In this document: in pieces, positions 57,451 to 58,446 of the stretch | How the letters are laid out: every line of letters begins with the position of its first letter | Position numbering within the stretch: position 1 is the first letter of the stretch | Assembly (NCBI RefSeq): GCF_057098645.1 | Contig: NZ_CM169472.1 | DNA: 64,000 bases | Direction: 5' to 3' (one strand) | The notes under the pieces: model-generated | Database searches by the model: none | The model's input: the letters and a program-made list of their open reading frames with translations, nothing else | Told to the model about the DNA's origin: nothing | Program-made: the position numbers and the translations under genes

Positions 57451-58446
57451 GTGACCGTGAGAGCACTACTGACCCCTGAAATTGCCCCGCGTATGGGGAT
57501 CGTATTGTTCAGGCCAGGTTCAGAGCTGATGCCCCTGTTTATGCAGGGGCGTGTCCTGCTGGAGCCTGAGCCGGAACGTTATTCATCTTTCGCTAGTGGT
57601 GCCGTTCCGGCGGCATCACAACCGCTGGCGGATGATCCTGCCGTTCGGGCCGTGTTCCGCAATGAGGCAGTGATCCGTCGTGCTGGTGGCGTGGAATGTC
57701 TTGAAAGCTGGTTACTTCGTGAAAAAGGCTGCCAGTGGCCTCATTCCGACTGGCACAGCGAGAACATGACCACAATGCGACACGCTCCGGGTGCAATCCG
57801 TCTGTGCTGGCACTGCGATAACCAGCTGCGCGATCAGTTCACGGAACGGCTGGAATCAATGGCAACGGATAACTGTGCCCGCTGGGTGTTGTCTGTTGTG
57901 CGTCGGGATCTCGGTTTTGATGACAGTCACGTTGTGACAATGCCGGAACTGTGCTGGTGGCTGATTCGTAATGACCTGGCGGATGCCTTACCGGAAAGTG
58001 CAGCCCGTAAGGCACTGAGATTACCGAAGCCTGTTGTGCCGTCTGTCACCCGGGAAAGTGACCTTGTGCCTTCGGTTCCTGCCACCAGCATCATCCAGGA
58101 TAAAGCGAAAAAGGTGCTGGCGCTGAAAGTGGATCCGGAGTCGCCGGAGTCTTTTATGTTACGCCCCAAACGTCGCCGCTGGGTTAATGAAAAGTACACG
58201 CGCTGGGTTAAGACGCAGCCGTGCGCATGTTGTGGAAAGCCAGCTGATGATCCCCACCACCTGATAGGCCACGGTCAGGGTGGAATGGGTACAAAAGCGC
58301 ATGATCTCTTTGTGTTGCCTTTGTGCAGAAAGCATCACGACGAGCTGCATGCGGATACCGTGACATTTGAAGAGAAGTATGGCTCCCAGCTGGAGCTGAT
58401 ATTTCGTTTTATCGATCGTGCGCTGGCAATAGGCGTACTGGCGTAA
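57451..58446 (+). CDS. DUF968-type phage protein with C-terminal HNH-like Cys/His motif
   Basis: 331-aa ORF; C-terminal …QPCACCGKPADDPHHLIGHGQGGMGTKAHDLFVLPLCRKHHDELH…. Confidence 0.55.
   Translation: MTVRALLTPEIAPRMGIVLFRPGSELMPLFMQGRVLLEPEPERYSSFASGAVPAASQPLADDPAVRAVFRNEAVIRRAGGVECLESWLLREKGCQWPHSDWHSENMTTMRHAPGAIRLCWHCDNQLRDQFTERLESMATDNCARWVLSVVRRDLGFDDSHVVTMPELCWWLIRNDLADALPESAARKALRLPKPVVPSVTRESDLVPSVPATSIIQDKAKKVLALKVDPESPESFMLRPKRRRWVNEKYTRWVKTQPCACCGKPADDPHHLIGHGQGGMGTKAHDLFVLPLCRKHHDELHADTVTFEEKYGSQLELIFRFIDRALAIGVLA

Follow-up and report, generated by a model that had tools for sequence, protein, structure and literature searches.

A widespread DUF968/YdfU-family gene upstream of Q in a lambdoid prophage encodes a predicted two-domain HNH nuclease

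DUF968 and its relatives among HNH proteins

Jablonska et al. identified the HNH nature of DUF968 in 2017 and assigned the family to "group 7" of the His-Me finger proteins (PMC5714182). For YdfU/DUF968, that work predicted membership among the HNH proteins and a role in recombination, and it noted the arrangement of RusA and/or an antirepressor, DUF968, and Q (PMC5714182). Among related proteins, Gp16 of Staphylococcus phage PhiNM1 is a RecA-binding, RecA-stimulated nickase (PMC12817073, 2026). The motif of Gp16 consists of a CxxC (C145/C148), H157, and C181-R-E-H184-H185-x3-H189 (PMC12817073). Ref of phage P1 is a RecA-dependent HNH nuclease that cuts only RecA-bound DNA (PMC4713147, PMC4330346), and PdcB, also of P1, is dispensable for growth of the phage (PMC10695390). 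The DUF968 family has a conserved place beside RusA and Q, and its HNH module has a RecA-binding sibling in Gp16 and a RecA-dependent structural sibling in Ref.

The gene analyzed here lies in a prophage within a 64,000-nucleotide stretch of DNA (hereafter the window) and belongs to the published DUF968/YdfU family; genes of this kind are ordinary and widespread in lambdoid prophages. Because the HNH assignment was made in 2017 (PMC5714182) and 3,713 of the 5,426 complete E. coli genomes (approximately two thirds) carry the gene, the HNH finding itself is already known. Carriers include Stx2-, cdt- and SfII-type phages. Strain EC27 has a gene 100% identical to that in the window, and the prophage there is a defective remnant.

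Gene and domain organization

An intact ORF on the plus strand spans positions 57451–58446 and encodes 331 residues counted from the GTG at 57451, the numbering used throughout. The probable start codon is the GTG at 57457, which yields a protein of 329 residues; the upstream GTG adds two. Nearly all homologues start at the equivalent of residue 3 (MRALL...), RefSeq annotates the identical gene from the second GTG, and a Shine-Dalgarno-like GAGGTGA at 57447–57453 is compatible with that start. An earlier note on this DNA, made from the letters alone, described a DUF968-type protein with an HNH-like Cys/His core at its C terminus, and both descriptions hold. The Pfam DUF968 model (PF06147) matched residues 162–328 (E = 6.4e-81; 270.9 bits relative to a gathering cut-off of 27.8) and was covered at positions 2–171 of 171, placing the protein in the PF06147/YdfU family. 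Pfam HNHc_6 (PF16784) matched residues 253–310 just above its cut-off (26.9 vs. 26.6 bits), and PHROG 96, "HNH endonuclease", matched over the full length (E = 7.5e-177). The C-terminal string quoted in the note is present exactly. There was no NCBIfam model that matched the protein. Against the PDB, a single-sequence search returned only a marginal match to YbcO (E = 1.2) and spurious C2H2 zinc fingers, and a full-length profile search returned no match.

Table 1. Coordinates of the DUF968 gene, its parts, and its neighbors in the window
Feature	Positions	Strand	Basis
RusA Holliday-junction resolvase, two genes upstream, same operon	56231–56620	+	Domain/family matches
KilA-N domain protein, directly upstream	56640–57449	+	Pfam
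DUF968/YdfU-family gene	57457–58446	+	Pfam, PHROG, homologue and RefSeq starts
N-terminal domain, residues 3–155	57457–57915	+	Outside Pfam models; PHROG 11007; predicted fold
Degenerate HNH-like beta-beta-alpha zinc module, residues 94–127	57730–57831	+	Model and conservation
Conserved VDPESPESFMLRPK motif, residues 227–240	58129–58170	+	Homologue alignment
Predicted C-terminal HNH (His-Me finger) nuclease domain, residues 247–331	58189–58443	+	Pfam, profile, structure
HNH core quoted in the earlier note, residues 258–300	58222–58350	+	Conservation; motif equivalence with PhiNM1 Gp16
Chi sites inside the DUF968 gene	57682–57689, 57953–57960	+	Part of Chi-rich prophage arm
Third Chi site inside the DUF968 gene	58082–58089	-	Part of Chi-rich prophage arm
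Q-type late antiterminator (PF03589), directly downstream	58460–59212	+	Pfam, PHROG

In an AlphaFold model (pLDDT of 91), the C terminus adopts the beta-beta-alpha-metal fold of HNH proteins. Profile comparison with HNH families, which the earlier note had proposed as a check, gave, in addition to the HNHc_6 match, hhalign probabilities for the C-domain of 94.9% with Gp16 (E = 4.7e-8), 82.5% with YbcO, 75.3% with Ref, and 8.3% with NinG. Conversely, the DUF968 model recognizes Gp16 above its cut-off (29.1 vs. 27.8 bits).

Conservation was counted across 38 homologues with identities down to 25%. The putative zinc ligands C258, C261, and C292 are kept in 38, 31, and 33 homologues, respectively, and the losses of C261 and C292 coincide in the same proteins. 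Position 295 is a histidine in 16 and a cysteine in 15, an exchange typical of a zinc ligand. At the sequence level, these residues make up the CxxC...CxxH/C pattern of the zinc-finger HNH subtype and a putative zinc site. The catalytic set is likewise conserved (H270 in 35 of 38, H296 and H300 in 34 each, D285 in all), and both D285 and P290 are invariant in the HNH core. H270, H296, and H300 align with H157, H185, and H189 of Gp16 and correspond to a general-base histidine and the metal-binding His/Asn positions of the HNH helix. The VDPESPESFMLRPK motif precedes the HNH domain; its K240 is invariant, and D228 and P239 are at least 90% conserved. As judged from motif and model, the C-domain is a zinc-stabilized HNH nuclease domain of the YbcO/DUF968/HNHc_6/Ref clade, and the DUF968 protein is predicted to have nuclease activity.

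The N-domain is confidently folded in the model and matches PHROG 11007, annotated as "unknown function". When searched alone, it matched no Pfam family at E ≤ 10 and nothing in BFVD at E < 0.05 with Foldseek, and no structural match to NinB was found. According to the model and the alignment, residues 94–127 form a second, degenerate HNH-like zinc module that lacks conserved catalytic histidines, with candidate ligands C94, H/C102, C119, and C/H122 inside a conserved LCWH(H/C)DN motif. In a test for internal duplication, the N-domain and C-domain profiles aligned collinearly, pairing C94 with C258 and C119 with C292, with a weak score (E = 0.017, probability of 2.6%). Proteins with only the N-domain were considered as alternative fusions among the representatives and rejected, as they are truncations. 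The degenerate module in the previously unannotated N-domain is an addition of the present analysis, and the role of this domain is probably recognition of substrate or partner.

Operon position and Chi content

The gene sits in the distal early-right ("nin") operon, where lambda has NinG/Rap, and is packed tightly with its neighbors (table 1). The next ORF begins 13 nt past the DUF968 stop and matches Pfam Antiterm (PF03589, E = 1.1e-52), confirming the earlier description of a gene just upstream of Q. The scanned intergenic gaps have no promoter-like site, and the scanned region has terminator-like consensus matches, including three inside the DUF968 gene; nothing in the scan was convincing as a promoter or terminator belonging to the gene itself. 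The order of RusA and/or antirepressor, DUF968, and Q is found again around distant homologues, where the Q families differ, and synteny is kept in homologues of only 25–50% identity, beside different Q families and flanking genes. RusA is the recognized positional alternative to NinG. Across 12 inspected elements bearing DUF968 or YbcO, RusA is co-encoded in seven, the prophage of the window among them, and NinG is annotated in none (the annotation of KY271401 is sparse).

The prophage of the window has no exo/bet/gam-type Rec module and is Chi-rich, with 16 sites in 15.8 kb (12 on the plus strand) relative to nine in 48 kb of host DNA. This combination matches that of LLS, a RecBCD-aided phage. 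Gene 47 of LLS is a 55%-identical DUF968 homologue in the same position, and its reading frame runs upstream of the annotated start and takes in the N-domain. The nin region of LLS was stated to be without a recombination gene (Zheng et al. 2025). That DUF968 occurs in lambdoid phages which, like LLS, are rich in Chi and have no Rec module is a second addition of the present analysis and suggests a link to host RecA/RecBCD. Carriers from E. coli and Klebsiella show the association, and two others that also carry the gene do not: PPompW_699, with four Chi sites in 22 kb and a RecE-type pseudogene, and Edwardsiella phage EPP-1, with none in 20.6 kb. Chi-rich carriers share a module backbone and therefore are not independent observations, and because the association is partial, we treat it as a lead and not a conclusion.

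Predicted function and comparison with known systems

We consider it somewhat probable that the DUF968 protein is a two-domain, delayed-early phage HNH nuclease that nicks recombination or replication intermediates and promotes recombination-dependent replication. The gene, located ahead of Q, would share a transcript with the replication gene, RusA, and KilA-N. In the protein, C258, C261, C292, and H295 are predicted to hold a structural zinc, H270 would act as the general base, and H296 and H300 would bind the catalytic metal. The C-domain may nick DNA at D-loops, forks, or RecA-bound DNA and, as in the nearest characterized relatives, nicking would promote recombination-dependent replication of phage DNA. 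The resulting junctions could be resolved by the co-encoded RusA, and the catalytically degenerate HNH-like module of the N-domain could recognize the substrate or a partner. The HNH tail most closely resembles nucleases that work with RecA, so the protein probably acts as a nickase in recombination or replication rather than in homing. Starting from the fold, motif conservation, family relationships, and synteny described above, we infer its nuclease activity, nicking specificity, RecA coupling, and the role of its N-domain. For the enterobacterial DUF968 subfamily, activity, substrate, and RecA link are extrapolated from relatives that share only the approximately 70-residue HNH core.

A more specific proposal draws on the Chi-rich lambdoid phages without a Rec module. 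DUF968 could be their unrecognized nuclease, one that nicks phage or RecA-bound DNA and thereby supplies entry points or D-loop processing for host RecBCD-Chi-RecA recombination-dependent replication, with RusA resolving junctions where present and the degenerate N-terminal HNH module serving in targeting or RecA docking. We regard this proposal as tentative and rather unlikely.

The earlier note had suggested a structure-specific nuclease in the position of lambda NinG/Rap. The nin-region position and the HNH fold stand, whereas membership in the NinG/Rap family does not: there is no match to Pfam NinG at E ≤ 0.1, and the hhalign probabilities of 4.6% and 8.3% reflect only 13 aligned columns at the CxxC knuckle. 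A functional equivalent of Rap/NinG, cutting D-loops or Holliday junctions alone and independently of RecA, is nevertheless an alternative, though an unlikely one. It fits the position in the nin region, the consistent lack of an annotated NinG in the inspected elements, and the NinG-like recombination role hypothesized for this His-Me finger family of another group (PMC5714182). However, similarity to NinG in sequence and profile does not extend beyond the CxxC knuckle, and Ref and Gp16 are RecA-linked nickases and not branch-specific resolvases. RusA, encoded two genes upstream here and present in seven of the 12 elements, is a dedicated junction resolvase that would make a second one redundant.

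Less likely still is a nuclease directed at the host, which would nick or condense the bacterial chromosome early in lytic growth and stop host replication or counter defense. When expressed, Gp16 condenses the nucleoid and is inhibitory to both growth and replication of the host (PMC12817073), and expression of the DUF968 gene from an early operon would suit such a role. Against it, PADLOC matched no defense-system model and no other defense or anti-defense signature was found, and thousands of lysogens and cryptic prophages keep an intact copy of the gene, as K-12 does with ydfU in Qin, although it would be repressed there.

It is also very unlikely, in our view, that the HNH residues are vestigial and that the protein is a non-catalytic zinc finger, binding DNA or protein in a regulatory or architectural role at the early-late switch. 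The P1 PdcB clade lost the catalytic histidines and retains zinc cysteines and a full-length, intact ORF, so the family can persist without catalysis. The gene immediately precedes that of a late regulator, Q in lambdoid phages and lpa in P1, and the N-domain itself has a degenerate HNH-like zinc module. But the Pfam scan found no helix-turn-helix or other regulator domain, and strong conservation of the full catalytic set in the lambdoid clade points to selection on catalysis.

A free-standing HNH homing endonuclease, the other possibility raised earlier, would be a selfish gene placed between KilA-N and Q. Many homing endonucleases have an HNH domain, and the label in some phage records is just "HNH endonuclease", yet this explanation is highly improbable. 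When an artificial KilA-N/Q junction of 505 nt was searched as an empty site against the 5,426 complete E. coli genomes, one or both halves matched in 3,329 and the contiguous junction was found in none. Only two matches reached at least 80% coverage, each split in two with a DUF968 remnant between. The conserved synteny beside different flanking genes is also inconsistent with homing, no NUMOD, AP2 or HNH_3 modules were found in the Pfam scan, and the domain is of the HNH subtype found in Ref, YbcO, and Gp16. Scarcely credible is a terminase-associated protein of the HK97 gp74 type for cos cleavage in packaging because, although accessory factors of the HNH type are widespread in packaging (cited in PMC12817073) and P1 pdcB is near pacA and pacB, the gene is in the early and not the late operon, Q, a methyltransferase, and the lysis cassette separate it from the terminase genes, and P1 PdcB is catalytically degenerate and non-essential.

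As it stands, the result amounts to a routine annotation of a gene from a very common prophage family. [quoted passage not shown] With Stx-converting phages among the carriers, the finding could also bear on their replication after SOS induction.

Of the known systems compared with the family, lambda NinG/Rap (PF05766) is a branch-specific endonuclease. Both are His-Me finger proteins of the nin region with a plausible role in recombination, but NinG/Rap is in group 24 and DUF968 in group 7. PdcB of P1 is a full-length homologue, approximately 26% identical over 99% of its length with the N-domain included, and its gene is directly upstream of that of the late activator, lpa. The PdcB clade lost H269/H270, H296, and H300 but keeps the four cysteines, and PdcB is presumably inactive as a nuclease. 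YbcO of DLP12 and phage 82 (YbcO/DUF1364, PF07102; PDB 3g27) is a 96-residue HNH core alone, with neither N-domain nor linker. Ref (PDB 3plw) is the best structural resemblance in the PDB and has the PC..C, HH, and PLCRxHH motifs in common with DUF968 (hhalign of 75%). The Pfam model RecA_dep_nuc (PF16786), on which Ref itself scores 172.7 bits, has no match to the protein of the window at E ≤ 0.1, and the N terminus of Ref is disordered and basic (PMC4330346) in contrast to the folded N-domain of the DUF968 protein.

The closest characterized relative in sequence is Gp16, which belongs to Pfam HNHc_6. C258/C261, H270, and C292-R-K-H295-H296-x3-H300 are identical in motif and spacing to Gp16, with the histidine nine residues after the CxxC, and each protein passes the Pfam cut-off of the other family. 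Each is the product of an early phage gene located close to replication genes, in an operon that has RusA at another position. They differ in host, Gram-positive for Gp16 and Gram-negative here, and in the N-domain, which is NinB/Orf-like in Gp16 and an unrelated domain with a degenerate HNH-like zinc module here. Consistent with this difference, the HNHc_6 match covers only the HNH core (profile positions 123–184 of 204) and not the NinB/Orf-like part of the profile. YdfU of the E. coli K-12 Qin prophage is 57% identical over its full length and nearly identical over the last ~90 residues, has the same two-domain architecture, and is encoded at the same site directly upstream of the PF03589 Q gene ydfT. 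There is no material difference between YdfU and the protein of the window; they are alleles of one family.

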